In this document: positions 652 through 49,375 of the stretch, piece after piece
How positions within the stretch are numbered: the stretch's first letter is position 1
Layout of the letters: each line of letters starts with the position of its first letter
Source: a virus
Virus record (IMG/VR): IMGVR_UViG_3300027751_000015
Coordinates: 1,813-65,812 of that record
Reading direction: 5' to 3' (one strand)
Length of the DNA stretch: 64,000 nt
Notes under the pieces: generated by a model
Told to the model about the DNA's origin: nothing
Seen by the model: the letters and a program-made list of their open reading frames with translations, nothing else
Database searches by the model: none
Position numbers and translations under genes: made by a program

Positions 652-842
652 TGTTACCAGATGAAATGGAAGCCGAAAAGAACCGCAAGATAATTGTATC
701 ACAGTCAAATACAATCGAGATTCTTCAACAGAACGTGAGAGAGTTACAAGAACAATTGAATGCTGCGCATAAGCGTATTACTCAATTGACTCCTGAAGAA
801 ACTGAATTTATTGTCCGCAATCATAAAGGATTTGAAGGGTGA
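651..842 (+). CDS. Hypothetical coiled-coil protein
   Basis: Stop/start-coupled to both neighbours; heptad-rich. Confidence 0.6.
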   Translation: MLPDEMEAEKNRKIIVSQSNTIEILQQNVRELQEQLNAAHKRITQLTPEETEFIVRNHKGFEG

Positions 843-1612
843 GAATTATAGCAGGACCTTGTCAACATGAGTCGTTAGCTGAGTCAGCAGATATTGCACG
901 AGAGTGTAAACGAGTGTGCGATAAGTACGGCTTTGAGTATTATTTCAAAGCAAGCTTCGATAAAGCAAACCGCTCAAGTATGCAAGGCAAACGTGGCACG
1001 GGCCTAGAAGCAACACTTACTGACTTTCTTGCAATAAAAACAGAGTTAGGTATAAAGACACTTACTGATGTGCACGACCACGTACAAGTTAGGCGCATTG
1101 AACGACAGTTTAAAGATGCTGTTGATGTCTATCAGATACCTGCATTTTTGTGCAGGCAGACTGATTTAATCCAAGCAGCCTGTGCCACAGACAAGATAGT
1201 AAATATAAAAAAAGGTCAGTTCATGGCCCCTTGGGATATGAAAGGAGTGATAAGTAAGACTGAAGGCGCTAAAGACGTTTGGATAACTGAGCGAGGAACT
1301 AGTTTTGGCTATAACACTCTTGTCGTTGACTATACTGGGCTTATGTATATGCTCGACAATTTTAAACATGATATTGTTTTCGATTGTACGCACTCTGCCC
1401 AAAAACCCGGAGGACAGGGTAATAGTTCAGGCGGTAATAGGGATTACGTGCCTGGGCTGGCTCGTAGCGGGGCTGCTCTTGGGATTAAATCTTTTTTCTT
1501 GGAAGTCCATCCTGAACCTGATCTAGCACCAAGCGATGGTCCTAATATGTTAAAACTAGAAGATTTTGAAAGGACCGTAGATGACATCCACCGCTATTCT
1601 TATACCGGCTAG
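839..1612 (+). CDS. kdsA: KDO8P synthase (3-deoxy-8-phosphooctulonate synthase)
   Basis: IIAGPC, KASFDKANRSS, QIPAFLCRQTDL, NIKKGQF, ERGTSFGY, FDCTHS and EVHPEP...SDGPN motifs. Confidence 0.95.
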   Translation: MRIIAGPCQHESLAESADIARECKRVCDKYGFEYYFKASFDKANRSSMQGKRGTGLEATLTDFLAIKTELGIKTLTDVHDHVQVRRIERQFKDAVDVYQIPAFLCRQTDLIQAACATDKIVNIKKGQFMAPWDMKGVISKTEGAKDVWITERGTSFGYNTLVVDYTGLMYMLDNFKHDIVFDCTHSAQKPGGQGNSSGGNRDYVPGLARSGAALGIKSFFLEVHPEPDLAPSDGPNMLKLEDFERTVDDIHRYSYTG

Positions 1613-2249
1613 ATACGGCAGCACACGTTTTCCTGGTAAGCCACTAACACTTTTAGATGGTGTTCCTATGGTTAAACGAGTATATGATAAGTGTGTAGCA
1701 ACTGGCTACGACACATATGTACTAACAGACGATATGTCTATTGCGCATCTATTTAATGATAATGATTGTAGGATAGATAATACTGATTACCAAAATGGAA
1801 CTGAAAGATGTGCTGGCGCAATAAATCTAATTCGTAAGTATGACCAGTATATTAATGTTCAAGGTGATATGCCTGATGTGACAGAGGAAATGATCGAAAA
1901 GACGATTTGGCATTTAAAAAACTATCCTGTTACTACTATGTGTGCTATGATGCCAGAGGAACAACAGAATGATCCTAATACAGTTAAACTAGTAAGAGCT
2001 GCAGATAAGTGTTTATGGTTTGGTAGAGGCATGACTGGGTATGGTGATTGGCACTTGGGAATTTATGGATACAAGAGGAATGCGTTAGAAATGTATCCTG
2101 GTTTGACAGGCACACGTGAAGAGCGTATTGAAGAACTAGAACAACTCCGCTGGTTAAAAAATGGATGGGATATCGGTGTATTTCCATGTGAGTTTAACGG
2201 AGTAGAAATCAACACACCAGAAGATGCAAAGAAGTGGAATGAAAAATGA
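1581..2249 (+). CDS. kdsB: CMP-KDO synthetase (KDO cytidylyltransferase)
   Basis: IPARYGSTRFPGKPL, NGTERC, INVQGD, HLGIYGY and E-LEQLRWL motifs; adjacent to kdsA. Confidence 0.92.
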   Translation: MTSTAILIPARYGSTRFPGKPLTLLDGVPMVKRVYDKCVATGYDTYVLTDDMSIAHLFNDNDCRIDNTDYQNGTERCAGAINLIRKYDQYINVQGDMPDVTEEMIEKTIWHLKNYPVTTMCAMMPEEQQNDPNTVKLVRAADKCLWFGRGMTGYGDWHLGIYGYKRNALEMYPGLTGTREERIEELEQLRWLKNGWDIGVFPCEFNGVEINTPEDAKKWNEK

Positions 2250-2614
2250 AAGCTGGAAAAGTATGGGGTACGACAGAACTGATTGAAGCAAATGGCGCTT
2301 TAGAGTTTCACCGTATTGAAATGTTTGAAGGCGGTGTATGCTCGAAGCATTTGCACCGCTACAAGTGGAATGGGTTCTATGTAGAGTCAGGCAGAATGCT
2401 TATTCGTACATGGCAACGCGACTACGATTTAGTTGATGTTACTATTCTAGAAGAAGGCGATTATCATAAAGTTAAACCTGGTCTTTATCATCAATTTGAG
2501 TGTGTTGAAGATGGTATAGCATATGAACTATATTGGGCCGAGTTTAATCATAACGATATTGAACGAGAAAGTGTTGGATTTCACCAAGATGAGATTGAGC
2601 ATGATGGTACTTGA
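2246..2614 (+). CDS. Cupin-domain protein (sugar isomerase-like)
   Basis: GKVWG N-terminus, CSKHLH...NGFYVESG and HQF cupin motifs. Confidence 0.75.
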   Translation: MKAGKVWGTTELIEANGALEFHRIEMFEGGVCSKHLHRYKWNGFYVESGRMLIRTWQRDYDLVDVTILEEGDYHKVKPGLYHQFECVEDGIAYELYWAEFNHNDIERESVGFHQDEIEHDGT

Positions 2615-2777
2615 TAAGCTGTTTTTAGATGTAAATAGAGTAGAAGTTATTGATAACAATGGTCGCTCATACACTAAAAACCGAGTAGGTGAGGTGAAAG
2701 TACAGCTTCAAGACGATATGAGAACACTAAAATTGTTTGTTCAGTTTGAAGAAGATGAGGAAATATCAATTGACTAA
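2601..2777 (+). CDS. Hypothetical protein
   Basis: ATG at 2601 overlapping the upstream gene end; fills the operon gap. Confidence 0.55.
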   Translation: MMVLDKLFLDVNRVEVIDNNGRSYTKNRVGEVKVQLQDDMRTLKLFVQFEEDEEISID

Positions 2778-2810
2778 TTGGCAAGCAACATGGAAGGTCT
2801 TAAAAGAGCT

Positions 2811-3248
2811 ATGGCTATAGGAATAACATTTAGCACTTTTGATTTGTTACACGCAGGTCATATCGCTATGCTAAGAGAAGCAAAAAATCAATGTGATTAT
2901 CTAATCTGTGGTTTACAAGTAAATCCTGCCGCGGAAAGATCTGAAAAAAACACACCAGTTCAAACACTAGTAGAAAGATGGATGCAACTACAAGCTGTAA
3001 AATATGTAAATGAAATTATACCCTATGAGACCGAAACAGACATAGAAGATATTTTAAAAATGTTTGATATAGATGTTAGAATTATAGGTCAAGAATATAA
3101 AGACGGAAAATTTACTGGAAGAGCTACTTGCTCTGCCCGAGGAATAGAAATTTATTTTAATAAAAGAGACCATAGATTCTCCACTAGCGATTTACGCGAT
3201 AGAGTGTATGGAGAAGAACTTAAAAAAGACATTGGAGGTCTTACATGA
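2811..3248 (+). CDS. Glycerol-3-phosphate cytidylyltransferase-like (TagD family)
   Basis: FSTFDLLHAGH (HxGH), ER...LQAVKYV and C-terminal R...STS motif. Start could instead be ATG 2790. Confidence 0.85.
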   Translation: MAIGITFSTFDLLHAGHIAMLREAKNQCDYLICGLQVNPAAERSEKNTPVQTLVERWMQLQAVKYVNEIIPYETETDIEDILKMFDIDVRIIGQEYKDGKFTGRATCSARGIEIYFNKRDHRFSTSDLRDRVYGEELKKDIGGLT

Positions 3249-4093
3249 AAATAACTATAGTTGGCTATGGTTTTGTGGGTAGAGCTGTAGAGTATGGATT
3301 TAGAACTCCTAAAGTAAGAATGCAAATTGTTGATCCTAAATACGGTAAAACCTGCTATAACAGTTTAAAGGACGTTAATCTAGAAGAAAATATAACGTTT
3401 GTTTGTGTACCAACTCCTATGAATAAAGACGGTTCTATAGATTCCACCATTCTGGTAGATACAGTTAAAGAGCTAAAAGAACGAATGTCCGGAATAATTG
3501 TTATCAAATCTACGGTAACTCCTGATATAATTAAAAAACTCGTAGTAGGTTCGGGCGGTACTAGAATCGTATATAACCCAGAGTTTTTAACAGAAAAGAA
3601 TGCTATAGATGATTTCATAAATCCTGATAAGCATATCTTTGGCGGAAACGACGGATTTATCGACAACCTAGAATTCTACTATAAAGAATATAGCCTTTGT
3701 AGACCTTGTCCAGTACATCGAATGTCTGCGGTAGACGCTAGTTTTGTAAAATATGGAATTAACTCTTTCTTAGCTATGAAAGTTCTGTTTTTTAATCAGC
3801 TATATGATGTAGTAGAAAATAACGAAGCAGCTTATAATAAGATAGTGAATGCTATAACATCGGATAGTAGAATAGGTAGATCTCATTCTGCAGTTCCTGG
3901 GCTTGATAATAAGCGAGGATACGGAGGAGCTTGCTTTCCAAAGGATACAAGCGCGTTATTTAATTTAGATAAAGGGTTTACATTACTAGGAGAATGTGTT
4001 AGAATTAATAATGAATACAGATCTCAATATGAATTAGACCAAAGGGAAATAGAACAACATGTCGATTATGGACAAACTGAAGAAAAACAGTAA
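3245..4093 (+). CDS. UDP-glucose/GDP-mannose 6-dehydrogenase family protein (short phage form)
   Basis: IVGYGFVG Rossmann motif, FVCVPTP, IKSTV, YNPEFL, K...NSFLA and GYGGACFPKD. Confidence 0.9.
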   Translation: MKITIVGYGFVGRAVEYGFRTPKVRMQIVDPKYGKTCYNSLKDVNLEENITFVCVPTPMNKDGSIDSTILVDTVKELKERMSGIIVIKSTVTPDIIKKLVVGSGGTRIVYNPEFLTEKNAIDDFINPDKHIFGGNDGFIDNLEFYYKEYSLCRPCPVHRMSAVDASFVKYGINSFLAMKVLFFNQLYDVVENNEAAYNKIVNAITSDSRIGRSHSAVPGLDNKRGYGGACFPKDTSALFNLDKGFTLLGECVRINNEYRSQYELDQREIEQHVDYGQTEEKQ

Positions 4094-5105
4094 AATCAAA
4101 ACTTCTGAAGTTCTTGCGGACTCAAAATTCTTTACAGAAGTAGATATGACACCAACTGATGTACCTATGATTAACGTAGCACTTTCAGGTTCTGTCGATG
4201 GAGGACTGGCACCTGGACTTACAGTACTGGCTGGGCCTTCAAAACATTTTAAAACATCGTTTGCTTTACTGATGGCAGCATCGTATCTGAAAAAGCACCC
4301 AGAAGCTGTTATGCTATTTTATGATTCAGAGTTTGGTTCTCCTCAAGCTTATTTCGAGCAGTTTGATATTGATACAACCCGCATTTTACATACACCAATT
4401 ACAAATGTAGAAGAGCTTAAATTTGATCTTATTTCTCAATTAGAAGAAATTTCGAGAGATGACAAAGTAATTGTTGTAATTGATTCTATTGGTAACTTAG
4501 CTTCTAAGAAAGAGCTAGATGATGCAATCAATGAAAAATCAGTAGCAGATATGTCACGTGCGAAAGCTTTAAAAGGTTTATTTCGTATGTCGACACCATA
4601 TCTTACAATGAAGAATATTCCTCTGATTGCTGTTAACCATACGTATATGGAAATTGGCTTGTTTCCAAAAGCCATTGTAGGTGGTGGCACCGGAATTTAT
4701 TATTCTGCAGATAATATTTGGATCTTAGGTCGTCAACAAGATAAAAAGGGTACAGAAATACAAGGTTATCATTTCGTAATTAACGTGGAGAAAAGCCGTT
4801 ATGTTAAAGAAAAATCTAAAATTCCTATCACTGTCTCTTGGGATGGTGGTGTCCGTAAGTACTCTGGCTTGCTCGATTGTGCTCTTGCTGGTAATTATGT
4901 CACTAAGCCTTCCAATGGCTGGTATGCTGCGGTTGATCAAAGTACTGGAGAAATTGGACATAAGGTTCGGCACGCTGACACTCTTGATGAATCCTTCTGG
5001 AGTCCAATCTTTGCTAATACAGATTTTAAAGACTTCTTGAAAAAACAATACAGTATTGGTCATCAATCTCTAGTAGATATGGATAAGATTGTGGAAGAAG
5101 CATAA
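4059..5105 (+). CDS. uvsX: RecA-like recombinase UvsX
   Basis: LAGPSKHFKT Walker A, FYDSEFG, IDSIGNLAS and GGGTGIYYSADNIW. Confidence 0.97.
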   Translation: MSIMDKLKKNSKIKTSEVLADSKFFTEVDMTPTDVPMINVALSGSVDGGLAPGLTVLAGPSKHFKTSFALLMAASYLKKHPEAVMLFYDSEFGSPQAYFEQFDIDTTRILHTPITNVEELKFDLISQLEEISRDDKVIVVIDSIGNLASKKELDDAINEKSVADMSRAKALKGLFRMSTPYLTMKNIPLIAVNHTYMEIGLFPKAIVGGGTGIYYSADNIWILGRQQDKKGTEIQGYHFVINVEKSRYVKEKSKIPITVSWDGGVRKYSGLLDCALAGNYVTKPSNGWYAAVDQSTGEIGHKVRHADTLDESFWSPIFANTDFKDFLKKQYSIGHQSLVDMDKIVEEA

Positions 5106-5377
5106 TGAAAGAAAACACTGATTATGAATTTATTCCAGTTGAGGGTCAAGATAACTGGAATATAAGAATAAAAACAGGAGATTATATAGAGACTGTGTTT
5201 CAGTTCGGAGCTTTAGCAGTAAATGAAGGAGATGAGTCTTTAAGCTTTAATTTTGAAGTAATCTCCTCACCTATAGAAGATTTAGTTCCTGATGAAGATA
5301 TTGGTTTACAAAAGAACGTAGGCAGTATACTATATGATGTATTAGAACAGGCTAGCGCGATGGGGCAAAATGAGTAA
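5105..5377 (+). CDS. Hypothetical protein in T4 gp40 syntenic position
   Basis: Lies between uvsX and gp41, as gp40 does in T4; no diagnostic motif. Confidence 0.5.
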   Translation: MKENTDYEFIPVEGQDNWNIRIKTGDYIETVFQFGALAVNEGDESLSFNFEVISSPIEDLVPDEDIGLQKNVGSILYDVLEQASAMGQNE

Positions 5378-6737
5378 CGTAGAACAAGTAATATTACGAA
5401 ATGTGTTGAATAACGAATCTTATATGCGTAAGGTTCTACCGTTTATTCAGCCAGATTATTTTCAAGGAGTTTACAATCTTCTTTTTAAAGAAGCTGCAGC
5501 ATATGTAGCAAAATTCAATACACTGCCGACTAAAGATTCTCTTAAGATTGAAGTCGATGGATCTGATAGGTTTAATCAAGATATGTATGGTGCAGCCATG
5601 GAGATTATTCCAGTGCTGTTTGAAAAGGATAATGCTGATCAAGAATGGCTTATGAGCACTACTGAAAAATGGTGTCAAGATAGGGCTATTCATAATGCTG
5701 TCATGGAATCAATAAGTATTATTGATGGGAAGCATAAGTCTCTTACTAAGAATGCTATGCCAGATCTCCTAACAAAAGCTTTAGCAGTAACCTTTGATCC
5801 TTCAGTAGGTCACGACTATATTGAAGATGTTGAAAAACGATATGATTTTTATCATGAAGATGAAGAGCGTATTCCTTTTGATTTAGAATACTTTAATCAA
5901 ATCACAAAAGGCGGATTACCTAACAAAACTCTTAACATTGCTCTTGCTGGTACAGGTGTAGGTAAATCATTGTTTATGTGCCACATGGCAGGTAATGTTT
6001 TAACTCAAGGTAAAAACGTATTATACATAACTATGGAAATGGCAGAAGAACGTATTGCAGAACGGATTGATGCCAATCTGCTAAATATCCCTCTTGACCA
6101 GCTACAGCATATCACTAAAGAGATGCTAACTTCGAAGGTAGATAAGCTCGCATCTAGAACAAACGGCAAGCTCATTATCAAAGAATATCCCACTGGTTCT
6201 GCTCATACAGGCCATTTTAGAGCACTGTTAAATGAGCTTAAACTCAAGAAGAACTTTGTGCCAGAAATGATATTTATTGATTACCTTAATATATGTTCTT
6301 CTTCTCGAATGAAAGGAATGGGTGGTGCAATTAACTCTTACACTTATATCAAAGCAATTGCTGAAGAATTACGAGGACTTGCAGTTGAGTTTAACGTCCC
6401 GCTTGTATCTGCAACGCAAACGACGCGTAGTGGTTTTGGTAGCTCGGATCCTGGGCTTGAAGATACGAGCGAGTCTTTTGGATTACCCGCAACGGCAGAT
6501 CTAATGTTTGCCCTTATATCTTCAGAAGAGCTTGAAGCTCAAGGCCAAATAATGGTTAAACAATTAAAGAATAGATATAACGATCCTAATAACAATAAGA
6601 GATTTGTTATTGGAATTGATAAATCTCGTATGAGGCTGATAGATGAAGAAAATGGAACTGAAGGTGTAGTAAATGATGTTCCCACTTTTGATAAAACTGA
6701 AATGAACCAAAGGTTTAAGGACTTTAAAATACAATGA
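5370..6737 (+). CDS. 41: Replicative DNA helicase gp41 (DnaB family)
   Basis: AGTGVGKSLFMC Walker A, YITMEMAE, IFIDYLNI, SESFGLPATAD and QLKNRYND. Confidence 0.97.
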   Translation: MSNVEQVILRNVLNNESYMRKVLPFIQPDYFQGVYNLLFKEAAAYVAKFNTLPTKDSLKIEVDGSDRFNQDMYGAAMEIIPVLFEKDNADQEWLMSTTEKWCQDRAIHNAVMESISIIDGKHKSLTKNAMPDLLTKALAVTFDPSVGHDYIEDVEKRYDFYHEDEERIPFDLEYFNQITKGGLPNKTLNIALAGTGVGKSLFMCHMAGNVLTQGKNVLYITMEMAEERIAERIDANLLNIPLDQLQHITKEMLTSKVDKLASRTNGKLIIKEYPTGSAHTGHFRALLNELKLKKNFVPEMIFIDYLNICSSSRMKGMGGAINSYTYIKAIAEELRGLAVEFNVPLVSATQTTRSGFGSSDPGLEDTSESFGLPATADLMFALISSEELEAQGQIMVKQLKNRYNDPNNNKRFVIGIDKSRMRLIDEENGTEGVVNDVPTFDKTEMNQRFKDFKIQ

Positions 6738-6750
6738 AAGGAAATAAATA

Positions 6751-6867
6751 ATGGCTGTAATAGAAAAAAATAAAAAGACAAGTATCGGAAGTCGTAATGT
6801 TAAAACGTCTTCTATGAACAAATCAAAGAAAAGAAGTTTTAAAAAGTACAGAGGTCAAGGTAAGTAA
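6751..6867 (+). CDS. Small basic protein (38 aa) missed by the ORF track
   Basis: AAAGGA SD, ATG 6751, MAVIEKNKKTSIGSRNVKTSSMNKSKKRSFKKYRGQGK; TAATG stop/start overlap with thyX. Confidence 0.8.
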   Translation: MAVIEKNKKTSIGSRNVKTSSMNKSKKRSFKKYRGQGK

Positions 6868-7553
6868 TGAAAACTCGTCTCCTATCATATACTCAACCAG
6901 TAAGACATGTTCACTCAGGTGATCTTGGTATTATGGGTTTAGATAACATTCAAGATTTGATTGCGTATTGCGCTCGAGTATCAAATCCAAATAATCAAAG
7001 TAATACAAAAACTACAGCAAAACTTCTTAATTATCTTATTGAGCATAAGCATTGGTCTCCGTTTGAAATGGCTTCTGTTACCATGGAAATTGAAACAACA
7101 AGAGATATCGCTAGACAGTTTCTACGTCACCGATCATTTTCGTTTCAAGAGTTTTCTCAGCGGTATGCTGACATCCGTGATCTTAATGATAATTTTGTAA
7201 TTCGTGATGCTCGAATGCAAGATCCTAAAAATCGTCAAAACTCTGTCGTAACAGATGATGCCGATCTACAAGAACGTTGGGCTGAGATGCAAGCCGATGT
7301 GATCGCCTGCTCAAAGGCGGCATACAGCTGGGCACTAGCAAACGGTATTGCGAAAGAGCAAGCCCGTGCAGTTTTACCAGAAGGAAATACTGTCTCTCGG
7401 CTCTACGTAAATGGTACTATTAGGTCATGGATTCACTATATTGATCTAAGATCCTCAAATGGTACACAACAAGAGCACATGGACCTGGCAAAAGAAATAG
7501 CGAACGCCATAAGTATAATATATCCTAGTATCATAGACTTTATAAAGGAGTAA
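6867..7553 (+). CDS. thyX: FAD-dependent thymidylate synthase
   Basis: HWSPFE, RHRSFSFQEFSQRY signature, KEQARAVLP and RSWIHY..LR. Confidence 0.97.
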   Translation: MKTRLLSYTQPVRHVHSGDLGIMGLDNIQDLIAYCARVSNPNNQSNTKTTAKLLNYLIEHKHWSPFEMASVTMEIETTRDIARQFLRHRSFSFQEFSQRYADIRDLNDNFVIRDARMQDPKNRQNSVVTDDADLQERWAEMQADVIACSKAAYSWALANGIAKEQARAVLPEGNTVSRLYVNGTIRSWIHYIDLRSSNGTQQEHMDLAKEIANAISIIYPSIIDFIKE

Positions 7554-7844: not shown

Positions 7845-8267
7845 ATGGAGAATAAAATGAGTGATTTTGCTAATGACATGTACATGATGCATAACAAATT
7901 CGGCGTACGTGAGTGGTTTGAAGCCAATAAAGAAAATAAAGATCTTATGCAGAAATATCTCATGTTTCGTATGCTTATGATCGGTGAAGAATACCAAGAG
8001 ACATTGTCTGCTATTAATAATTCTGATGCAGAGGAAGTCGTTGATGGTCTAATTGATATGTGCGTATTTGCTATCGGCACTCTTGATATTATGGGTGTTG
8101 ATGCTAATAAAGCATGGGATGCTATATACCAAGCTAATATGGCAAAAGAGCCAGGCGTAAAGCCTGGTCGCCCTAATCGTTTTGGATTGCCCGATTTACT
8201 AAAGCCAAGTGGTTGGCAAGGGCCATCACACGAAGGCAATCATGGCGATCTGCCGAGTATCGTCTAA
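7845..8267 (+). CDS. MazG-like nucleoside triphosphate pyrophosphohydrolase
   Basis: EEYQE...EEVVDGLID acidic helical motif and ANMAK. Confidence 0.8.
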   Translation: MENKMSDFANDMYMMHNKFGVREWFEANKENKDLMQKYLMFRMLMIGEEYQETLSAINNSDAEEVVDGLIDMCVFAIGTLDIMGVDANKAWDAIYQANMAKEPGVKPGRPNRFGLPDLLKPSGWQGPSHEGNHGDLPSIV

Positions 8268-8749
8268 TGAAAAATGAAGGTGAAAAACTTTGGAAAAAGG
8301 TGAAGAAAATGGATCTAGGAAACCCGATGATAACAGCCCTTGTTGGGCTGGTCATTTTTTATATTGGACTTAAGACATTCTCAGGTGGAATGAAATCTAT
8401 GGGGAATATGGAACACCTTAACTGGTTTCTAGGTAGTCCGATCTATATGTTTTTTGGTGGAATTATCATGACATTGCTATGGCAATCATCTTCACTATCT
8501 ACTACTGCTATTATTGCATTAGTTGCTTCTGGTGCTTTACCGCTGCCTGCAGCTATTGCATGCGTTCTTGGTGCTAATATTGGTACGACAGGTACAATAT
8601 GGCTGGCTGGTTTATTTGTCTCTGATGGAATGCCTAAAGGTGATACGCTACGAATTGCAATGGCACATACTGGAATGAACCTACTTATGGCTCTTATGCT
8701 ACTACCTTTTGTTGGACGAATAGCGCAGTATTTAGCTAGATTTGGATAA
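8267..8749 (+). CDS. Na+/phosphate cotransporter-family membrane protein (single repeat)
   Basis: WQSSSLST and GANIGTT signature motifs; hydrophobic; ATG 8267 overlaps upstream TAA. Confidence 0.8.
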   Translation: MKNEGEKLWKKVKKMDLGNPMITALVGLVIFYIGLKTFSGGMKSMGNMEHLNWFLGSPIYMFFGGIIMTLLWQSSSLSTTAIIALVASGALPLPAAIACVLGANIGTTGTIWLAGLFVSDGMPKGDTLRIAMAHTGMNLLMALMLLPFVGRIAQYLARFG

Positions 8750-9503: not shown

Positions 9504-9925
9504 TGACTCACTTTAAAGCTAAGGTCGATAAAGCTTTTATTATTCAGCGTGACGAAAAGGTCAATAAAGATAATCGACCAAACCCCTATTTTAGATGGGA
9601 TTCTGAATTTGTAGAATTCCATCAAGCAAAGGTTGATCAATTTCAGACTTTATATGATGGCTATGAATATGATACATATCATCAGATACTTGGAGCCATT
9701 GATTATAAAATGTACTCTAAGTCTGGTGTTCATGTATCTGAGTATATTCAAAAACAAATTAAAGCTGGTAAAATCGATCAGCTTGGAATTTGGATGTGGT
9801 CGAGGCCCTGGGGTGGTCCGCTCGAAGAAAATCAAGTAGTAGAATATACAGTCATCGATTATGTTGACGCAAAAGAAGCATTAAAACACATAGATGAAAA
9901 TAATAGATTTACATATCCTCTATAA
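9503..9925 (+). CDS. Hypothetical protein
   Basis: TAATG coupling at 9503. Confidence 0.6.
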   Translation: MTHFKAKVDKAFIIQRDEKVNKDNRPNPYFRWDSEFVEFHQAKVDQFQTLYDGYEYDTYHQILGAIDYKMYSKSGVHVSEYIQKQIKAGKIDQLGIWMWSRPWGGPLEENQVVEYTVIDYVDAKEALKHIDENNRFTYPL

Positions 9926-9936
9926 TATGGTAGAAT
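9908..9936 (+). promoter_or_regulatory. Promoter TTTACA-N17-TAGAAT for the DNA-modification cluster
   Basis: 17-nt spacer; T4-early-like -35; immediately upstream of ATG 9943. Confidence 0.6.
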
Positions 9937-9942
9937 ACAATT

Positions 9943-10251
9943 ATGAAATACGATAATGGCAAACCCCCGATTCACCTTGTACCAACTCTCGCTATTGAAT
10001 CTGCAGCGAGAGTACTAGAATTTGGTGCAAAGAAATACGGTGAAAACAACTGGCGTGATGACATAAACACGACTGAGTGGAGTAGATCTTATTCTTCTCT
10101 TCAGCGTCACTTAATGGCATATTGGAATAAAGAAGATACTGATCCTGAGTCTGGTCTTCTCCATCTCGATCACGCTTTAACGCAACTTATGATTCTTCGT
10201 GTAGCATACGAAGAAGGTAAAGATATGGATGATAGATATGAAAGCAAATAG
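9943..10251 (+). CDS. DUF5664-like dNTP diphosphohydrolase
   Basis: KYDNGKP...GAKKYGENNWR...RHL...DPESGLLHLDHA pattern. Confidence 0.8.
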   Translation: MKYDNGKPPIHLVPTLAIESAARVLEFGAKKYGENNWRDDINTTEWSRSYSSLQRHLMAYWNKEDTDPESGLLHLDHALTQLMILRVAYEEGKDMDDRYESK

Positions 10252-10942
10252 CGTAAACGACGTACGGCAATTCTTTATTAATGAACTTAAAGATGAAGCA
10301 TTCACTATAGATAAAACTGGCGCTAAAACTATTGAATTAATCGGTGCATCTTTTATTGCAACCGAAAAGTCTATATTTGGTGTACCCAACCAGGATTACA
10401 TTAACCAAGAACTGCTATGGTACCATAACATGTCGACTAATATCAATGACATTTTTGGTGAACATCGTGATCCTCCAGCAGCATGGAAGTATGCTTCCAA
10501 TTCACATGGTGAGATTAACTCTAACTATGGCAAACTTATCTTCAGTGATACTTACAATAAACAGTACGATAATGTATTAACAGAACTGCTAGAGAATCCT
10601 GATGGAAGACGTGCTACCATGGTTTATAATCGCCCTAGCATTTGGCTTGATTATAAAGATAACGGCAAAAATGATTTCATCTGTACCAACGCTGTCACTT
10701 ATTATATTCGTGATGGTCTGCTTCATGCTGTAGTCCAAATGCGTTCTAATGACGTAGTCTTTGGTTACAAAAATGATTACGCATGGCAAATGCATGTAGT
10801 ACAAAAACTATGCGACGATTATAACTTCCGACGTTTTGAACGCACTGCAAGCGGCAGTGGCGAGGCTATTGAACCAGCCTTGATGACGTGGCAAGTACAA
10901 AATTTGCACGTTTATGAACGGCATTTTGATATAGTAGTTTAA
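10238..10942 (+). CDS. 42: dCMP hydroxymethylase (T4 gp42-like)
   Basis: DKTG.KTIE.IGASF, GEINSNYG, NPD.RR, DF.CTN (catalytic Cys), MRSNDVVFGYKNDYAWQ (Asp at the specificity position, as in T4 gp42 rather than the Asn of ThyA) and LHVY.RHF. Confidence 0.92.
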   Translation: MKANSVNDVRQFFINELKDEAFTIDKTGAKTIELIGASFIATEKSIFGVPNQDYINQELLWYHNMSTNINDIFGEHRDPPAAWKYASNSHGEINSNYGKLIFSDTYNKQYDNVLTELLENPDGRRATMVYNRPSIWLDYKDNGKNDFICTNAVTYYIRDGLLHAVVQMRSNDVVFGYKNDYAWQMHVVQKLCDDYNFRRFERTASGSGEAIEPALMTWQVQNLHVYERHFDIVV

Positions 10943-10985
10943 AACTGCTATATCTACTACACAACAACAAAACAAGGAACTTAAT

Positions 10986-12377
10986 ATGGAACTTCATAAT
11001 GAAGACCTCGGCCCTGTAACCGAGGATAAAAAAACATGGGGTTGGTTTGAAATTTTCAATGTATGGTCTAACGATATTCAATCACTCTTTGGATATACTT
11101 TAGCAGCATCACTATTCTTATCATATGGCCTTTCTGGCTGGTCTGTCTTTTCTGCTATTTTGGTAGCAGGACTTTTTGTTATGGTGCTGGTAAACCTAAT
11201 GGGTAAACCTTCTGTACAGCATGGCATTCCATTTCCAGTTATGGCTCGAGCGAGTATGGGTGTAAAGGGCGCTAACTTTCCGGCTGTATTACGAGCTGTT
11301 GTAGCCATCTTCTGGTATGGCGCGCAAACTTATTTTGCATCAACAGCTTTGTCTCTCTTAATTAAATCTCTTTTAGGAATTGAGCCATCGAGTATGTGGC
11401 TTGGTATGACTGGCATTGATTGGGTATCGTTCTTAATTGTGTGGGGTTTTCAGATCTTCTTGTTTATGAAAGGCATTGATACTATCGCTAAGTTCTTAAA
11501 TTTTGCGGGAGTGTTTGTATATGCTGTTATGATTGTTCTTGCTCTTCTTATTTGGAATGCGGCCGGATCAGGACTCATGACAGAAGTAGGTACTATCTTT
11601 CAAGGCGTAGGTGATTATAGTGGAACAGCACTCAGTGCGTGGTTCGCAGTAGTTGGTACAATGATTGCATACTTTGCGGCTGTTGTAATTAACTACGGTG
11701 ATTTCTCTAGATTTGTAAAATCACAAAAGGAAATGAGAAAGGGCAATCTACTTGGCTTGCCATTAAACATTGCTTTCTTTTCGTTAATCGCTTTAGTAGT
11801 TACTGCTGGTACTATTGTAGTCTTCGGTGAACCAATGACAAATCCTACTGATATTGTGGCAGCTGTCGGATCTTTACCACTTACTATTGTAGCTGCTATC
11901 GCGTTCTTCTTTGCGACTGTTGGCATTAATATGGTGGCTAACTTTATTCCACCTGCTTATGATCTTGCCAATCTAGCACCAGCTAAGATCGACTTTAGAC
12001 TTGGTGGTTTGATTACATCGGCATTTGCTCTCGTAATTGGTGGTCTTTGGGTTTCAGTAGTAAGTCAAATGGGTATCTTCAATTTTGTAAATACCTTTGG
12101 CGCTGTACTCGCTCCGATCTATGGTATTATGATGGTCGATCACTATATGATCAAGAAAGAAGCACTAGATATTGATGAACTATTTAATGCATCTGAAGAT
12201 GGTGAATACTATTATGACAATGGTTGGAACAAGAAAGCACTCGCAGCTTGGGCATTGCCTGCAGCGTTCTCTCTTGGAACGGTATGGTTGCCAGTTCTTG
12301 GCTTCTTATCAGGATTCGGATGGGTAATTGGTGCCGCACTCGGTGGAATTATTTATTTTACAATCATGAAAAAATAG
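10986..12377 (+). CDS. NCS1-family nucleobase:cation symporter (uracil/cytosine/allantoin permease-like)
   Basis: 463 aa, about 12 TM. NEDLGP...TWG, G.PFPVMARASMG..GAN, FWYGAQT, DFSRF, NMVANF and PIYGIMMVDHY motifs. Confidence 0.92.
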   Translation: MELHNEDLGPVTEDKKTWGWFEIFNVWSNDIQSLFGYTLAASLFLSYGLSGWSVFSAILVAGLFVMVLVNLMGKPSVQHGIPFPVMARASMGVKGANFPAVLRAVVAIFWYGAQTYFASTALSLLIKSLLGIEPSSMWLGMTGIDWVSFLIVWGFQIFLFMKGIDTIAKFLNFAGVFVYAVMIVLALLIWNAAGSGLMTEVGTIFQGVGDYSGTALSAWFAVVGTMIAYFAAVVINYGDFSRFVKSQKEMRKGNLLGLPLNIAFFSLIALVVTAGTIVVFGEPMTNPTDIVAAVGSLPLTIVAAIAFFFATVGINMVANFIPPAYDLANLAPAKIDFRLGGLITSAFALVIGGLWVSVVSQMGIFNFVNTFGAVLAPIYGIMMVDHYMIKKEALDIDELFNASEDGEYYYDNGWNKKALAAWALPAAFSLGTVWLPVLGFLSGFGWVIGAALGGIIYFTIMKK

Positions 12378-12385
12378 TGTATAAT
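12357..12385 (+). promoter_or_regulatory. Promoter TTTACA-N17-TATAAT upstream of dCMP deaminase
   Basis: 17-nt spacer, overlapping the end of the NCS1 gene. Confidence 0.65.
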
Positions 12386-12388
12386 AAA

Positions 12389-12412
12389 CGAGTAGGGCGA
12401 AAGTCCTACTCG
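12389..12412. other. 10-bp GNRA-capped hairpin
   Basis: CGAGTAGGGC-GAAA-GTCCTACTCG; lies at the predicted transcript 5' end, no + strand U-tract. Confidence 0.55.
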
Positions 12413-12433
12413 ACACAAAAAAAGGTTTATATT

Positions 12434-12874
12434 ATGGTTAATAAATGGGATAAGCGATATCTTGATCTAGCATCTGGAGTCGCTAATTGGTCGAAAGATC
12501 CTTCATCTAAAATCGGTGCGATTGCTGTAGGATCAAAAGGACAAGTGCTTGCTCAAGGCTACAACGGATTTCCAAGAGGAATTAGTGATAGTTTTGATCG
12601 ATATGCAAACAAAGATGTTAAGTATAAGTTTGTAGTTCATGCTGAAATGAACTGCATATACAATGCTACATATAATGGTGTATCACTTGACGGTGCAACT
12701 CTCTATGTTCATGGATTACCTGTCTGCTCTGATTGCGCAAAGGGTATTATTCAGGTTGGAATTAAGAGAGTTGTTATGCCGCTAGCAGAATACCCACAAC
12801 GATGGATCGAGTCGTTTGCATATTCATCGGAACTCTTTAGTGAAGCTGGTGTTGATTATGAGTTTATAGAATGA
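12434..12874 (+). CDS. cd: dCMP deaminase
   Basis: WSKDPS.KIGA, GYNGFPRG, HAEMN and PVCSDCAK zinc motifs; AAAGG SD before ATG 12434. Confidence 0.93.
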   Translation: MVNKWDKRYLDLASGVANWSKDPSSKIGAIAVGSKGQVLAQGYNGFPRGISDSFDRYANKDVKYKFVVHAEMNCIYNATYNGVSLDGATLYVHGLPVCSDCAKGIIQVGIKRVVMPLAEYPQRWIESFAYSSELFSEAGVDYEFIE

Positions 12875-13806
12875 TAGTCGGAACCTTTAGTAAAATACCT
12901 AAGAAGACATCAAGCCACAGTTATGGCTATGCCAGAACTTGGTCAGAAAATCTTAATGTACCCATTGACCATACGAATGGAAAGCACAAAGATGTTTATC
13001 TTTTGCCTGGTGCTAATTTTGGTGGTACTATTAATCTTATGGGTGGGTTTAACGAAGTTATTAAGGTTTGGATCGATAACTTGCTCGCTTCAGAAACAAT
13101 AACAGTACTGGACGGCTCTCCAGTTGACTACGGTGCGCAGTTAAAGAAGCGAAAAGACGTAACTGACAAAGATTGGTGCGATGCAATAACTGAGAAGCTT
13201 TCTGAAGCTAAGCCTCTTGTAGGCAGTGATTTACCACACGAATGGTTAGCAATCGGTGACAGTCACGTGTGCGCATATGCACCGAAGAATAGTAGTGTAG
13301 TCAAGCAAGATGGTACTACATTGTTTGGCCAAATCAATGAAGATTTTGCATACATCAGGTCTCATATCAAACCGCATCATAAAGGTGTTACCATATCTCT
13401 TGGCAATATTGATGTACGTCACCATTTATGCAGAGTAGAAACTAGCATCTATAAAATGGTCGAAGCATATAGCGATTTCGGAAAGAGTCTTGGCATTGAA
13501 GTAGAATACGCGGTGCCGTGGCCAATTGAATTCGAAGGCCGTAAACTTCCTCAGACCGGGTATTACAAGAAGCAACCATTTTGGGGCTCAAGAGATGAAA
13601 GAATGAAAGCAGCTTGGGATATGGAAGGCTGTATGAAAATATATGAAATGAAATTAGTAAAACCACCTCAAGCTTGGTATGATATGAATGAAGAAAAATA
13701 TGCTATAGATAAAATGGAAAGACCCCAATCAGTACATCTTAATCCCATGTTTTATCGCCGTATGAATTGGGGTGAGAGCGAAAACACACTAGAAAGTTTT
13801 ATGTAA
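12871..13806 (+). CDS. Hypothetical protein with SGNH/GDSL-hydrolase-like C-terminal region
   Basis: AIGDSH and SLGNIDVRHH blocks; late HLNP. Confidence 0.55.
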   Translation: MIVGTFSKIPKKTSSHSYGYARTWSENLNVPIDHTNGKHKDVYLLPGANFGGTINLMGGFNEVIKVWIDNLLASETITVLDGSPVDYGAQLKKRKDVTDKDWCDAITEKLSEAKPLVGSDLPHEWLAIGDSHVCAYAPKNSSVVKQDGTTLFGQINEDFAYIRSHIKPHHKGVTISLGNIDVRHHLCRVETSIYKMVEAYSDFGKSLGIEVEYAVPWPIEFEGRKLPQTGYYKKQPFWGSRDERMKAAWDMEGCMKIYEMKLVKPPQAWYDMNEEKYAIDKMERPQSVHLNPMFYRRMNWGESENTLESFM

Positions 13807-14876
13807 TGGAATTAGAAAGACGACCAAATTACGATTGTTATGTGGATTATTTCTGGCCTCGTTCAAAATGGCTTGAAGAGAATTGCCTAATCGGCGATGC
13901 TGATTATCTTGGACCTGAAGCTGACGAACACGTGAACGACGAGTTAATGCAAAATATCCCTGCTTACAACTGTGTGTCTAGAACGTATGAAGGATTCAAT
14001 AACGTAAACCAAGATTTAAATCACGGCACTAATCAAGTAGTATTTAAGAAAAGGCCGAAAGAGGTACAAGAACGAGTTCAGAAATATGTGACAAATAAAT
14101 GGACTCTTCGAGAATATGTGTTTGCTTATTATACGCATCGTAGTACTGGATCAGGATTTTATGCTGGCAAACCATGGCACGGATATCATCATAGCATAGT
14201 TAGTCATTTCGGAATGTATGAAACTGCAGATGAGATGGCGAATCTTATGAAGCAGTGGAAAAAAGCTGGTAAAAAGATGTTTTCTACTATTGGTAACCAG
14301 AACCCTACTCCGAAGAAAGGTATGAATCTTCCTGAACATATAACGAGTTTTGGTTTAGAACTAATGGGCGAACTGACAGAACATCTTAAAGAAAACTATA
14401 ATGCAGGTAATCCACCGCTTGAACAAAAGAGTTTAACTGATAGACTTAACCAGAAAAATATAGACAACGGGATTCGTCGTTGGAACTTTCCATATGCACA
14501 AGCCATTGCAGACATTGCTACGTATCATCCACAATATGTAGATCCTAATAGTAGTTTATATTGTGGTAATAATGCTAGACAAGCAATCGAACAAATGTTT
14601 CGAAAGCCAAAAGGGATGAGTCAAGTAGAATATCACGATCGAGCACTAGCAGATCTTACAGAAAACCTTGGTACAAATGCTGTGGCACACGAAGATACCT
14701 TATGCATCTATATCAGGTTTTTAAATAATCTCGATCGTTCTGGCCGAGGTCTTAAAAATGCTTCAGGTTATTATATGATGGATAAAAATGATAAGCCTAT
14801 GTATCCTGATATTTGGCGCCCTGAAGCGCTTGAAGCAAAACAACAAAAAGCAACTTTAGCGGAGTTTCTAGTATGA
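13806..14876 (+). CDS. Putative DNA base-hypermodification transferase (aGPT-PPlase/amino acid:DNA transferase-like, HhH-glycosylase fold)
   Basis: Blocks DELMQ...YNCVSR.YEG, FPYAQAIADI, YCGNNARQAI and EDTLCIYIRF parallel the D..LQ..FCNV.RE, GPGA..GL and E..LCE..KY blocks of that family as I recall them. Genomic context fits. Confidence 0.5.
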   Translation: MELERRPNYDCYVDYFWPRSKWLEENCLIGDADYLGPEADEHVNDELMQNIPAYNCVSRTYEGFNNVNQDLNHGTNQVVFKKRPKEVQERVQKYVTNKWTLREYVFAYYTHRSTGSGFYAGKPWHGYHHSIVSHFGMYETADEMANLMKQWKKAGKKMFSTIGNQNPTPKKGMNLPEHITSFGLELMGELTEHLKENYNAGNPPLEQKSLTDRLNQKNIDNGIRRWNFPYAQAIADIATYHPQYVDPNSSLYCGNNARQAIEQMFRKPKGMSQVEYHDRALADLTENLGTNAVAHEDTLCIYIRFLNNLDRSGRGLKNASGYYMMDKNDKPMYPDIWRPEALEAKQQKATLAEFLV

Positions 14877-16848: not shown

Positions 16849-16917
16849 GTATTACGCTTATACCGAGAACGGAAGTGTAATAATTATATCACAGGACAGA
16901 TACATTGTTGAAAGCTA

Positions 16918-16946
16918 TGTACAAAGTATTGGCTATAAAGTAATAT
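16918..16946 (+). promoter_or_regulatory. Promoter TGTACA-N17-TAATAT upstream of tmRNA
   Basis: 17-nt spacer; predicted start just before the acceptor piece. Confidence 0.55.
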
Positions 16947-16957
16947 ATAAGATGTAA

Positions 16958-17168
16958 GCGTTAATAACGGATGTATGGACCTCGGGGCAGTACCGAGCAG
17001 CTCCACCACAAGTACATAAGGTGTATTTCTGATGGGGCTGAACTAGGATCGACATGTATTCAAGTTTACAAACACAAATGCAAACGACAATTTTGCACCA
17101 TCTGGATTTGCCTTAGCGGCATGATCACAGGGGGTTGGCCACTTACCTAGCAACAGAAAAGTGGCAAC
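16958..17168 (+). ncRNA. ssrA: Circularly permuted two-piece tmRNA (alphaproteobacterial type)
   Basis: T-arm CTCGG-GGCAGTA-CCGAG (16981-16997), then CAGCTCC-A-CCA (16998-17008) and a 25-nt intervening segment. GGGGCTG (17034-17040) pairs with it, giving G3:U70, followed by AACTAGGATCGAC. Tag ORF 17080-17124 encodes ANDNFAPSGFALAA*. Outer ends are approximate. Confidence 0.93.
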
Positions 17169-17204
17169 TTTTATAATGTTTAATTTAATCTAGGAAAAAA
17201 GAAA

Positions 17205-35145: not shown

Positions 35146-37374
35146 ATGCTAAAAGTAGTTACTAATTCCCAAGATATTAATACCAGACATCTAATGTCAC
35201 AAACAAAATTTTACGAAGGCTATAGTAGATGGAGTGATGATGAATCCAGATACGAAACTTGGGAAGAATCAGTATCGCGTGTTATGGACATGCATAGAGA
35301 CACTTACAGCGATAAGATGTCAGAGGATTTAGAACTACTAATTAATGAAGCAGAAGCGTCTTATAAACTTAAGTACGCGTTAGGAGCTCAACGTGCTTTA
35401 CAGTTCGGTGGAGAGCAGCTTAAAAAGCACCAGATGAGAATGTACAACTGTACTTCTTCTTATGCAGATAGAGCAGCTTTTTTCGGTGAGTTGTTTTATA
35501 TCTTGTTATGCGGCGCAGGTGCTGGTTTCTCAGTGCAAACTCACCACATTGATAAGCTGCCAAACGTTGCTGAAAGAAAGAAGCAAGCAAAAGGTTATGT
35601 GGTAGAAGATTCTATTGAAGGTTGGGCAGATTCATTAGCTGTTCTTATGTCTTCGTTCTTTGCAGACAAAAGCACTCATCCTGAGTTTGCAGGTCGTAAA
35701 GTTTATTTTGATCTAAGTCATGTTCGCCCTAAAGGAGCTAAAATTAACGGTGGTTTTAAAGCGCCTGGTCCAGAGCCACTACGGCGTGCACTCGATAAAA
35801 TCGAACACATGTTACAAGGTATAGTTCTTACAGGCCGTGACCGCTTAAAACCTATTGAAGTATATGACATTTGTATGCATGCTGCGGACGCTGTGTTAGC
35901 CGGTGGTGTACGTAGGTCTGCAACTATATGTTTGTTCTCATCTGATGATCAGGAGATGATTAATGCTAAAACAGGGAATTGGTTTATCGATAACCCTCAA
36001 AGGGGCAGAAGCAATAATTCAGCTGTTATCGTCAGATCCGAAATTACTCGTGAAGATTTTAAGAAAATCATGGGATCAATCAAAGAGTTCGGAGAGCCTG
36101 GATTCTACTTTGTCGAAAACAGAGACTTTACGACTAATCCGTGTGTTGAGATTGGTATGTATCCGCAAATTGATGGAGAGTCAGGTTGGCAGGGATGTAA
36201 CCTCACAGAAATCAATGGAGGAAAATGCACATCGAAAGAGGAGTTCTTTAAAGCCTGCCGAGCAGGAGCAATTATGGGAACACTCCAAGCAGGATATACA
36301 AACTTTAAATATCTCGGAGAAACCAGCCAGCGTATCTTTGAAAGAGAAGCTTTACTTGGCGTCTCAGTCACAGGATGGATGAATAACCCTGAAGTTTTGC
36401 TTGATAGTGATATTCAGAAACAAGGCGCAGAGATAGTAAAAGCAGTTAATAAAGAAGTTGCTGATTTAATTGGTATTAATCCAGCAGCTAGAACAACCTG
36501 TGTTAAGCCCTCAGGTAATGCTTCAGTGCTGCTGCAGACTGCCTCAGGCATCCACGCTGAGCATGCACCAATGTATCTGCGCCACATTCAGTTAAATAAG
36601 GAATCCGAAGTTGCGCAGCTTATTGCTAAAACAAATCCATACATGGTTGAAGAGTCTGTATGGTCAGCTAGTAACACTGATTATTGTGTAGGTTTTCCTG
36701 TAATATCACCAGAAGGGTCTCTTTATAAAGAAGACTTGTACGGAACAGAGCTTCTCGAAAAAGTAAAAATGGTTCAGCAGAACTGGGTAGAAGCTGGAAC
36801 AAATGAAGATCTATGTGCCGACTCTCGTATTAGGCATAACGTATCAAATACTGTAACCGTACTTCCGCACATGTGGCCGCAAGTAGAAGATTATGTTTTT
36901 GATAATAGAGACGCATTTGCTGGTATTAGCTTCTTGGCAGGGTCTGGCGATAAAGATTTTGCTCAAGCTCCTATGACAGAAGTATTATCGCAGGATCAGA
37001 TCGTAGAAAAATACGGTAAGGCTGCGCTGTTTGCTTCTGGATTAATTGTAGATACTCGTAAGTGTGGATTTAGAGATTTGTGGGAAGCTACCTCAACTGC
37101 TCAAATGCCAGAAGAGTACCTCGGTGAAGTATCAGATATTAGAGCGGAATGGATTCGGCGCTTTAATAAATTCGCTGATAACTATTTTATGGGAGATCCT
37201 AAAGAAACTGAGTACTGCTTGAAAGATGTATTCCTTCTACACAAATGGACAAAAATTCAGCAGAACTTTGAAGGTGTTGATTTTGTAGCTCAGCTCAATG
37301 AGAAGAGATTTACGGATATCGACACAATGGGTGCTATTGCCTGTCAAGGTGGCGCATGTGAAATTTCTTTCTAG
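35146..37374 (+). CDS. nrdJ: Ribonucleotide reductase, class II (B12-dependent monomeric RTPR-like)
   Basis: YNC, GAGAGFS, GGVRRSA, TNPCVEI, GCNLTEIN, TTCVKPSG and C-terminal ACQGGACEI; no nrdB in window. Confidence 0.85.
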   Translation: MLKVVTNSQDINTRHLMSQTKFYEGYSRWSDDESRYETWEESVSRVMDMHRDTYSDKMSEDLELLINEAEASYKLKYALGAQRALQFGGEQLKKHQMRMYNCTSSYADRAAFFGELFYILLCGAGAGFSVQTHHIDKLPNVAERKKQAKGYVVEDSIEGWADSLAVLMSSFFADKSTHPEFAGRKVYFDLSHVRPKGAKINGGFKAPGPEPLRRALDKIEHMLQGIVLTGRDRLKPIEVYDICMHAADAVLAGGVRRSATICLFSSDDQEMINAKTGNWFIDNPQRGRSNNSAVIVRSEITREDFKKIMGSIKEFGEPGFYFVENRDFTTNPCVEIGMYPQIDGESGWQGCNLTEINGGKCTSKEEFFKACRAGAIMGTLQAGYTNFKYLGETSQRIFEREALLGVSVTGWMNNPEVLLDSDIQKQGAEIVKAVNKEVADLIGINPAARTTCVKPSGNASVLLQTASGIHAEHAPMYLRHIQLNKESEVAQLIAKTNPYMVEESVWSASNTDYCVGFPVISPEGSLYKEDLYGTELLEKVKMVQQNWVEAGTNEDLCADSRIRHNVSNTVTVLPHMWPQVEDYVFDNRDAFAGISFLAGSGDKDFAQAPMTEVLSQDQIVEKYGKAALFASGLIVDTRKCGFRDLWEATSTAQMPEEYLGEVSDIRAEWIRRFNKFADNYFMGDPKETEYCLKDVFLLHKWTKIQQNFEGVDFVAQLNEKRFTDIDTMGAIACQGGACEISF

Positions 37375-43012: not shown

Positions 43013-43018
43013 TTAATT

Positions 43019-44331: not shown

Positions 44332-44361
44332 TATTTTCAGAAATATTTTTAGAGTAAAAAA

Positions 44362-49210: not shown

Positions 49211-49287
49211 GCTCCGATAGCTCAATTGGTTAGAGCGCCCCGCTCATAACGGGTCGGTTGCAGGTTCGAGTCCTGCTGGGAGCACCA
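49211..49287 (+). tRNA. tRNA with CAT anticodon (Ile2 or elongator Met)
   Basis: Cloverleaf with CTCATAA loop, GTTCGAGTCC T-loop and encoded CCA; G:G mismatch in acceptor stem. Confidence 0.85.
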
Positions 49288-49292
49288 TAAAT

Positions 49293-49369
49293 GAATACGT
49301 AGCTCAGCTGGATAGAGCAAGTGCCTTCTAAGCACTAGGTCGAGGGTTCGAATCCTTCCGTGTTCGCCA
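49293..49369 (+). tRNA. tRNA-Arg(TCT)
   Basis: GAATACG/CGTGTTC acceptor, AGTGC-CTTCTAA-GCACT anticodon arm and CCA. Confidence 0.93.
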
Positions 49370-49375
49370 AATAAA

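Follow-up and report, generated by a model that had tools for sequence, protein, structure and literature searches.

The DNA analyzed here, referred to as the window, is a stretch of 64,000 nucleotides (nt) from the IMG/VR virus record IMGVR_UViG_3300027751_000015 (positions 1,813–65,812 of that record). At positions 10986–12377 of the window, on the + strand, is an open reading frame for a permease of the NCS1 family, which is inserted between two nucleotide-metabolism genes of a T4-like phage. The permease is probably a functional auxiliary metabolic gene, i.e. a secondary-active importer of allantoin or a closely related ureide that was captured from marine Alphaproteobacteria. A preliminary description, made from the sequence alone, had recognized an intact symporter of 463 amino acids (aa) with about 12 transmembrane helices, and had proposed that it scavenges pyrimidines or nitrogen to feed the synthesis of dCMP, hydroxymethyl-dCMP (hmdCMP) and dTMP. 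The gene was found exactly as described. With respect to function, nutrient scavenging is still the best reading, but the feeding of pyrimidines into nucleotide synthesis is not, since orthologs of the permease sit in allantoin/ureide gene clusters.

The permease gene starts with ATG and has no internal stop codon. Its translated sequence matches the Pfam family PF02133 (Transp_cyt_pur) over model positions 1–422 of 440 (E = 5.5e-79; 266.5 bits, cut-off 23.5). The TIGR00800 subfamily model gives 264.7 bits, which is below its cut-off of 353 bits. An AlphaFold2 model, with an alignment of 28 orthologs as input, displays 12 long helices (mean predicted local distance difference test score 76, predicted template modeling score 0.75). 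This model superimposes on the hydantoin permease Mhp1 of Microbacterium liquefaciens (PDB 2jln, 4d1a) with a TM-score of 0.81 in either direction; the score with CodB is 0.71, and other proteins of the LeuT fold score lower. The full-length family match, the 12-helix LeuT-type fold and the presence of the substrate-site residues show that the protein is a member of the NCS1 family (TC 2.A.39).

The overall sequence identity to Mhp1 is only about 23%, but a profile alignment shows that five substrate-site residues of Mhp1 have identical equivalents in the permease: Q42 (Q32), W117 (W110), Q121 (Q114), N314 (N315) and N318 (N319). All five are invariant across the 28-sequence alignment. In contrast, W220 of Mhp1 is replaced by Met226, and the S312/T313 pair of the Mhp1 sodium site by G313/I314. 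Because this Ser/Thr pair is Gly/Ile in the permease, the coupling ion is predicted to be H+, and probably not Na+. H+ coupling has been reported for the allantoin permease PucI and for AAN (PMC13390362). A single-sequence alignment had placed a lineage-specific replacement of the phage, F219W, at the W220 substrate position of Mhp1. This assignment was dropped, as the profile alignment puts W220 at Met226 and Q42 at Q32.

Sequence conservation was also compared over the whole protein. Among 82 cellular orthologs there are 203 alignment columns with at least 95% conservation. The permease of the window retains 199 of these and the phage copies as a group retain 197–200, compared with a range of 193–203 in the cellular proteins themselves.

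The permease gene is found between a dCMP hydroxymethylase gene and a dCMP deaminase gene, all on the same strand, in agreement with the preliminary description. The hydroxymethylase (positions 10229–10942, + strand, 237 aa) is of the T4 gp42 type (PDB 1b49, E = 1.5e-64) and keeps both the catalytic Cys (in the motif ICTN) and the equivalent of the cytosine-specifying Asp179 (in KNDYAW). The deaminase (12435–12874, + strand, 146 aa) matches PF00383 and phrog_174. Its start was revised and is most likely the ATG at 12435 and not the TTG at 12224, which would overlap the permease; this is suggested by alignment to relatives, where the protein is likewise 146 aa, and by an AAAGG motif at 12421–12425 upstream of the ATG.

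A search of IMG/VR with the hydroxymethylase yielded 17 related contigs. In the closest relatives (L109–L111) the permease is absent and the hydroxymethylase stop codon directly abuts the start of the deaminase. These relatives display a high identity to the window in the surrounding genes: 97%–98% in the MazZ-like protein that precedes the hydroxymethylase, 90%–92% in the hydroxymethylase and 90%–92% in the 311-aa and 356-aa proteins that follow the deaminase. As close relatives show the empty site, the word "inserted", used in the preliminary description, is literally true. The permease cassette is an insertion exactly between the hydroxymethylase and deaminase genes. It is approximately 1.5 kb in size (10943–12434, + strand), and the NCS1 gene in it is preceded by a spacer of 43 nt and followed by one of 57 nt. 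The 43-nt spacer holds a Shine-Dalgarno motif, AAGGA (10974–10978), 7 nt ahead of the permease ATG.

Conservation of the permease in related phages is thus partial. It is kept in L002–L004 and L010 and absent from L109–L111, and no NCS1 gene is present in the 152 kb of the related record G001 (86% complete). In a separate observation, the deaminase of the window is only about 72% identical to that of L109–L111, though the neighboring genes are 90%–98% identical, and it is 93% identical to that of the permease-bearing contig L010. The deaminase allele seems to have been swapped along with, or near, the permease cassette.

Contigs L002–L004 have the same gene order as the window: hydroxymethylase, permease, deaminase, 311-aa gene, 356-aa gene. 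The flanking proteins are 58%–80% identical between these contigs and the window, the permease is 95% identical, and the permease gene together with its spacers is about 91% identical at the nt level. A sliding comparison with L002 and L003 shows a sharp block of 85%–97% nt identity at about positions 10890–12500, with 50%–70% outside of it. The synonymous divergence (dS) of the permease gene is 0.42 and its ratio of nonsynonymous to synonymous divergence (dN/dS) is about 0.05 (0.02–0.055); dS of the flanking genes is at least 1.5 or saturated. These data are explained most simply if the cassette has recently been exchanged by recombination among diverged phages and the protein is under strong purifying selection. 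The permease is rare cargo, and only 10 contigs with the permease were recovered from the 2.9 million in IMG/VR.

The preliminary description had suggested that continuity across both junctions be checked. A 2.2-kb stretch that includes both is present in sequencing runs from 18 studies, four of which may be source samples. Contigs from independent metagenomes cover positions 10889–13232 (X5, 6 differences), 10326–11102 (X9) and 11102–12926 (X8). Both junctions are bridged by independent contigs, so the locus is not an assembly chimera. T4-like genes flank the permease on either side (UvsX, a gp41-type helicase, gp42, cd, ribonucleotide reductase (RNR) and RNase H). The G+C content at third codon positions (GC3) of the permease gene is 0.32, compared with 0.25–0.34 in the phage genes and 0.59–0.67 in the nearest, sister-clade cellular genes. 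This phage-like composition shows that the permease has been resident in phage genomes long enough to take on their codon usage. The permease is a phage auxiliary metabolic gene: phage genes are on both sides, its junctions are crossed by independent contigs, and on a phylogenetic tree it is nested among cellular homologs.

Two other observations were made on these runs. A joint of positions 10786 and 13006 in X5 was considered as a deletion form of the locus. It is found in one high-depth contig, where one side is 47 letters long at the 90% likeness setting, and it was set aside as a probable cross-match from another organism. Run X8, which is very small (3.3 Mb of contigs) and carries a single-organism label ("organism A"), shows the permease and the right flank at 95%–100% identity in a comparison with positions 10269–13291. 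Possibly it derives from one infected cell, sequenced as a single-cell genome, and it could reveal the host.

Cellular homologs have up to 77%–79% aa sequence identity to the permease. The phylogeny against cellular NCS1 proteins that the preliminary description had called for was constructed with 94 sequences. Clade A, composed of the window, L002 and L003/L004, is sister, with 100/100 support, to Parvibaculaceae-type cellular genes. A second group of phage copies, clade B (L005–L009 and L024), is nested in a different cellular clade. The clade B loci are T4-like too (clamp loader, Hsp20, dUTPase-like, PhoH and Clp genes) but carry the permease at another locus, where it adjoins PhoH, Hsp20 and aldolase-like genes. 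Forcing all phage copies to be monophyletic costs 58–65 log-likelihood units, and in an approximately unbiased test on a careful mixture-model tree of 48 sequences phage monophyly gives p = 4.9e-6. Two captures, or one capture with later replacement, are likely from these trees. Capture from marine Alphaproteobacteria is the best explanation of the origin of the gene.

One member of clade B, L024, is a 69.5-kb contig of 36% GC (FZLS01000008.1, "Rhodobacteraceae bacterium Water_Bin34") that was binned in a Rhodobacteraceae metagenome-assembled genome. It is 94% identical to the viral contig L007 across the entire 15.4-kb locus, and by this similarity L024 belongs to a phage; it was either binned wrongly or comes from infected cells.

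The gene context of the cellular orthologs points to a substrate. In all five loci of the sister clade (L017–L021), the permease gene is directly upstream of a fusion of PuuE allantoinase and 2-oxo-4-hydroxy-4-carboxy-5-ureidoimidazoline (OHCU) decarboxylase, a ureidoglycolate lyase, and a bicupin of the ureidoglycine aminohydrolase type. At least one gene of ureide catabolism is found within 5 kb in 45 of the 88 cellular ortholog loci. Over the 88 loci, the genes present are PuuE (26), allantoin/hydantoin racemase (25), ureidoglycolate lyase (20), bicupin (13), PuuD urate oxidase (12) and OHCU decarboxylase (9). Orthologs in SAR11 adjoin PuuE and ureidoglycolate lyase genes. Braakman et al. 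2025 (PMC11698098) describe this arrangement as the collocation of an "allantoin NCS1 permease" with genes for the breakdown of allantoin. In addition, the sole substrate-specific NCBIfam matches of the permease are two allantoin-transporter models, NF008476 and NF047713, and there is no match to a cytosine/uracil permease model at E ≤ 0.001, which speaks against the import of pyrimidines proposed earlier. Allantoin or a close ureide is thus the probable substrate, judging from gene neighborhoods and family models. Scavenging of nitrogen and/or carbon by way of allantoin is favored over the direct feeding of dCMP, hmdCMP and dTMP synthesis.

The permease may work as follows. The phage would express it early in infection, and the protein would be inserted in the inner membrane of the host. 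There it would use an ion gradient, probably of H+, to import allantoin or a very close ureide, which the allantoinase pathway of the host would degrade to urea or ammonia plus glyoxylate. The nitrogen and/or carbon released would support a phage that invests heavily in nucleotide synthesis. Among the open reading frames of the window that were screened against Pfam or PHROGs there was no gene for allantoin catabolism, so that any benefit would depend on a host that has the pathway. Function does not require a place in the nucleotide cluster, as the clade B ortholog sits at another locus.

That screen of the window is one of several results that weigh against a phage-encoded allantoin importer of alphaproteobacterial origin. 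The scores with the two allantoin models are far below the equivalog cut-offs (252.5 versus 620 bits for NF008476 and 232.7 versus 800 bits for NF047713), which places the permease outside of both equivalog families. A search for assayed members of the permease ortholog group found none. No P. aeruginosa protein is present among the listed relatives (120, all with at least 70% identity) of the member from the Pseudomonas clade, so that the group could not be linked to PA0476, the assayed allantoin transporter of that species. In the MetT study, NCS1 homologs at 70%–92% identity failed to replace one another in vivo (PMC13390362), and because of this failure the 77% identity to cellular proteins does not fix the substrate. 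About 20 ortholog loci, including the clade ancestral to phage clade B, have a resolvase-like gene and no ureide genes nearby. The phage copies of clade A differ from the cellular proteins at two of the columns with at least 95% conservation (P176V and F219W). Transcripts are limited to a few short contigs of 90%–95% identity in one oligo-dT RNA library, possibly from DNA carry-over, and no RNA run is listed for the permease gene alone. Finally, phage monophyly is not rejected on a quick LG+G4 tree (p = 0.056).

The resolvase-paired loci are of interest in their own right. In about 20 cellular loci (e.g. L012, 7320–7874, and L015, 7341–7895) the NCS1 ortholog is arranged head-to-head with a gene for a 184-aa resolvase/HTH_7 protein. 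The pair is found in many Alphaproteobacteria and in Veronia (Vibrionaceae), and the surrounding genes vary. It could be a mobile two-gene module, or the resolvase-like protein could be a resolvase-derived regulator.

Other substrates have to be considered. The permease may carry another nitrogen-rich solute, such as a hydantoin, a guanidino compound, a vitamin precursor (hydroxymethylpyrimidine, HMP) or a compound new to NCS1. The substrate range of the family shifts readily, as MetT carries metformin (PMC13390362), an arginase-family gene is upstream of the sister-clade genes in L017, L019 and L020, and there are the loci without ureide genes mentioned above. Such a solute is nevertheless unlikely, since the orthologs are found most often, and with the greatest conservation, next to genes for PuuE, ureidoglycolate lyase and allantoin racemase, and Rfam shows no thiamine pyrophosphate or other riboswitch, either in the window or ahead of two cellular orthologs. 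By the NCBIfam models, the fold and the lack of a riboswitch, the permease was not assigned to the CodB/Fcy-type cytosine permeases or to the CytX-type HMP permeases. Pyrimidine salvage, in which uracil, cytosine or a related base would be imported and converted by host salvage enzymes, RNR, deaminase, ThyX and hydroxymethylase to dCMP, hmdCMP and dTMP, was the main idea of the preliminary description. Two diverged phage lineages have the gene at this place in the nucleotide cluster, some NCS1 proteins, for example PA0443 and PA0438, carry uracil, thymine or cytosine (PMC11633122), and P176V and F219W are specific to clade A. However, none of the cellular ortholog contexts suggests pyrimidines, family models for cytosine or uracil are not matched, the fold is nearer to Mhp1 than to CodB, the clade B ortholog is outside any nucleotide cluster, and the equivalents of the Mhp1 substrate site are identical in phage and cellular proteins. 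This function is therefore rather doubtful. A narrower form of it, that the phage copy has been retuned by P176V and by F219W on transmembrane helix 6a to import a pyrimidine or a hydroxymethyl-pyrimidine-like base into the hydroxymethylcytosine/dTMP pathway, appears improbable. If true, the permease would be the first importer encoded by a phage whose dedicated role is to supply precursors for DNA base modification.

Two further explanations do without a nutritional role. The gene might be a passenger, a decaying gene or an artefact (host contamination, a chimera or a neutral hitch-hiker), and the patchy distribution, with most relatives lacking the permease, together with the weak transcript evidence would fit this. 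It is largely refuted by the independent contigs that cross the junctions, the low dN/dS, the retention of nearly all conserved columns, the phage-like codons, and the evidence that the permease was probably acquired twice and spread among diverged phages; we regard it as very improbable. Phages are known to encode inner-membrane exclusion proteins, and the main effect of the permease might likewise be a change in membrane potential, the exclusion of superinfecting phages or the masking of a receptor, so that transport would be a side effect. Its conservation, however, is what one would expect of a functional transporter, with all the substrate-site and gating positions that are invariant in cellular proteins retained, and a role of this kind is hardly to be expected. 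Uptake of allantoin or a close ureide thus accounts best for the results.

Comparison with known systems shows both likeness and difference. The closest is the "allantoin NCS1 permease" of marine Alphaproteobacteria, a common ortholog group in which identities to the phage protein are 77%–79% in the sister clade (Parvibaculaceae-type, L019–L021) and 64%–67% in SAR11. Length, the 12 helices and the conserved columns are alike. The phage gene differs in that it has no adjoining catabolic genes, has the lower GC3 and the P176V and F219W replacements given above, and encodes an N-terminus about 10 residues shorter than in the 474-aa cellular forms. The characterized allantoin transporters, E. coli YbbW/AllW and those of the NF047713 type, belong to a different subfamily, as the low model scores indicate, and a substrate common to them and the permease is suggested only by gene context.

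Among phages, the cyanophage PstS and PhoH-linked phosphate-stress genes are examples of auxiliary genes for nutrient uptake. The permease resembles these in being a host-derived uptake function in a marine T4-like phage, with a patchy distribution and a location among early/metabolic genes. Unlike PstS, it is a complete 12-helix secondary transporter and not a periplasmic binding protein, and its target would be organic nitrogen and not phosphate.

The preliminary description considered such a transporter to be rare phage cargo, and database searches support this. None of the PHROG families matches the permease, and a near-identity DNA search of GenBank phages with the permease gave no match. 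A protein search of GenBank phages gave five weak matches, none above 37% identity. The records concerned are short, unannotated or very large "phage" entries, and the matches may be host flanks. No report of a phage NCS1 or allantoin permease was found in the open-access literature. Two Acinetobacter phage MD-2021a records (328–379 kb) have a locus annotated as "ybbW putative allantoin permease" at about 317.5–318.8 kb that is 37% identical to the window protein. The distance from this locus to the record end is about 10 kb in the shorter record and about 60 kb in the longer one, and the locus may be host flank.

The region around the cassette also has candidate regulatory sequences. A sigma-70-like promoter candidate is at 9908–9936 (+ strand; TTTACA-N17-TAGAAT with an extended TG, 10 of 12 consensus matches) and probably drives the MazZ-like, hydroxymethylase and NCS1 genes, which would then be co-transcribed. 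The best candidate of the region (12357–12385, + strand; TTTACA-N17-TATAAT, 11 of 12 matches) overlaps the 3′ end of the NCS1 gene and falls within the block conserved with L002 and L003. From this site, transcription of the deaminase gene, which follows the insert, could be resumed. In the spacer that follows the NCS1 gene there is a stable hairpin (12389–12412, + strand) with a 10-bp stem and a 4-nt GAAA loop (−19.3 kcal/mol, z = −4.4, 0 of 200 shuffles as stable). It has no T-run on the + strand and is terminator-like on the − strand.

The MazZ-like dATP/dGTP (NTP) diphosphohydrolase at the head of this cluster is encoded at 9943–10251 (+ strand, 102 aa; PF18909, E = 1.5e-29; phrog_801). 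Downstream of the deaminase are two conserved phage proteins. That of 311 aa (12871–13806, + strand) matches phrog_13881, of unknown function, with no match in Pfam, NCBIfam or PDB; it is kept in the relatives without NCS1. That of 356 aa (13806–14876, + strand), kept in the same relatives, has no match in Pfam, PHROG, NCBIfam or PDB.

The source record is 69.5 kb in length and is estimated to be 35% complete. By UvsX, the closest GenBank phage is the Kyanoviridae "Phage C48C1" (76% identity). Other genes of the T4 type or of nucleotide metabolism in the window are UvsX (4059–5105), a gp41/DnaB-like helicase (5370–6737), a thymidylate synthase (6867–7553, phrog_85), which we take to be ThyX-like, MazG (7845–8267), RNR (35146–37374), RNase H (38011–38853) and PhoH (39736–40431).

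Several features elsewhere in the window were observed in passing. At 8213–8749 (+ strand) is a small membrane protein of 178 aa (TTG start) or about 146 aa (internal Met), with a single Na/Pi-cotransporter repeat (PF02690, 57 bits; NF037997, 50.7 bits). It is 90%–96% identical in many related phage contigs, in which its MazG neighbor is 66%–85% identical. This may be a second transporter-like gene of the phage group, perhaps for a half-size protein that self-associates in pairs. A sugar-nucleotide module at 839–4093 (+ strand) has genes similar to 3-deoxy-D-manno-octulosonate (KDO)-8-phosphate synthase (PF00793), CMP-KDO synthetase (PF02348) and UDP-glucose dehydrogenase, with cupin and cytidylyltransferase genes, and runs straight into uvsX in the replication region. 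Positions 42001–45000 have a GC content of 0.27–0.32, compared with about 0.37 elsewhere, and a run of + strand open reading frames of 180–260 aa; this stretch may be a separately acquired module.

Three adjoining tRNA genes are found at 49211–49449 (+ strand; Rfam RF00005, 63–67 bits each). A permuted two-piece transfer-messenger RNA of the alphaproteobacterial type is present at 16914–17169 (+ strand; Rfam RF01849, 74.7 bits; RF04321, 83 bits). It hints at an alphaproteobacterial or similar streamlined marine host; a BLAST search of five candidate donor/host genomes with this region gave no match.

The structure of the cassette, which is inserted exactly between two genes that otherwise abut and has a promoter-like site toward its 3′ end, illustrates well how such genes are added to phage operons. 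Auxiliary genes for nutrient uptake in phages are known mainly for phosphate, and a complete secondary transporter for organic nitrogen would be unusual cargo. The permease is also a compact protein for expression studies on the substrate of a widespread, uncharacterized NCS1 ortholog group. A recent proposal is that allantoin serves as a currency in cross-feeding among bacteria of the ocean (PMC11698098). If, as it appears, marine T4-like phages captured the permease twice and exchanged it under strong purifying selection, uptake of ureides probably limits phage production in some hosts.

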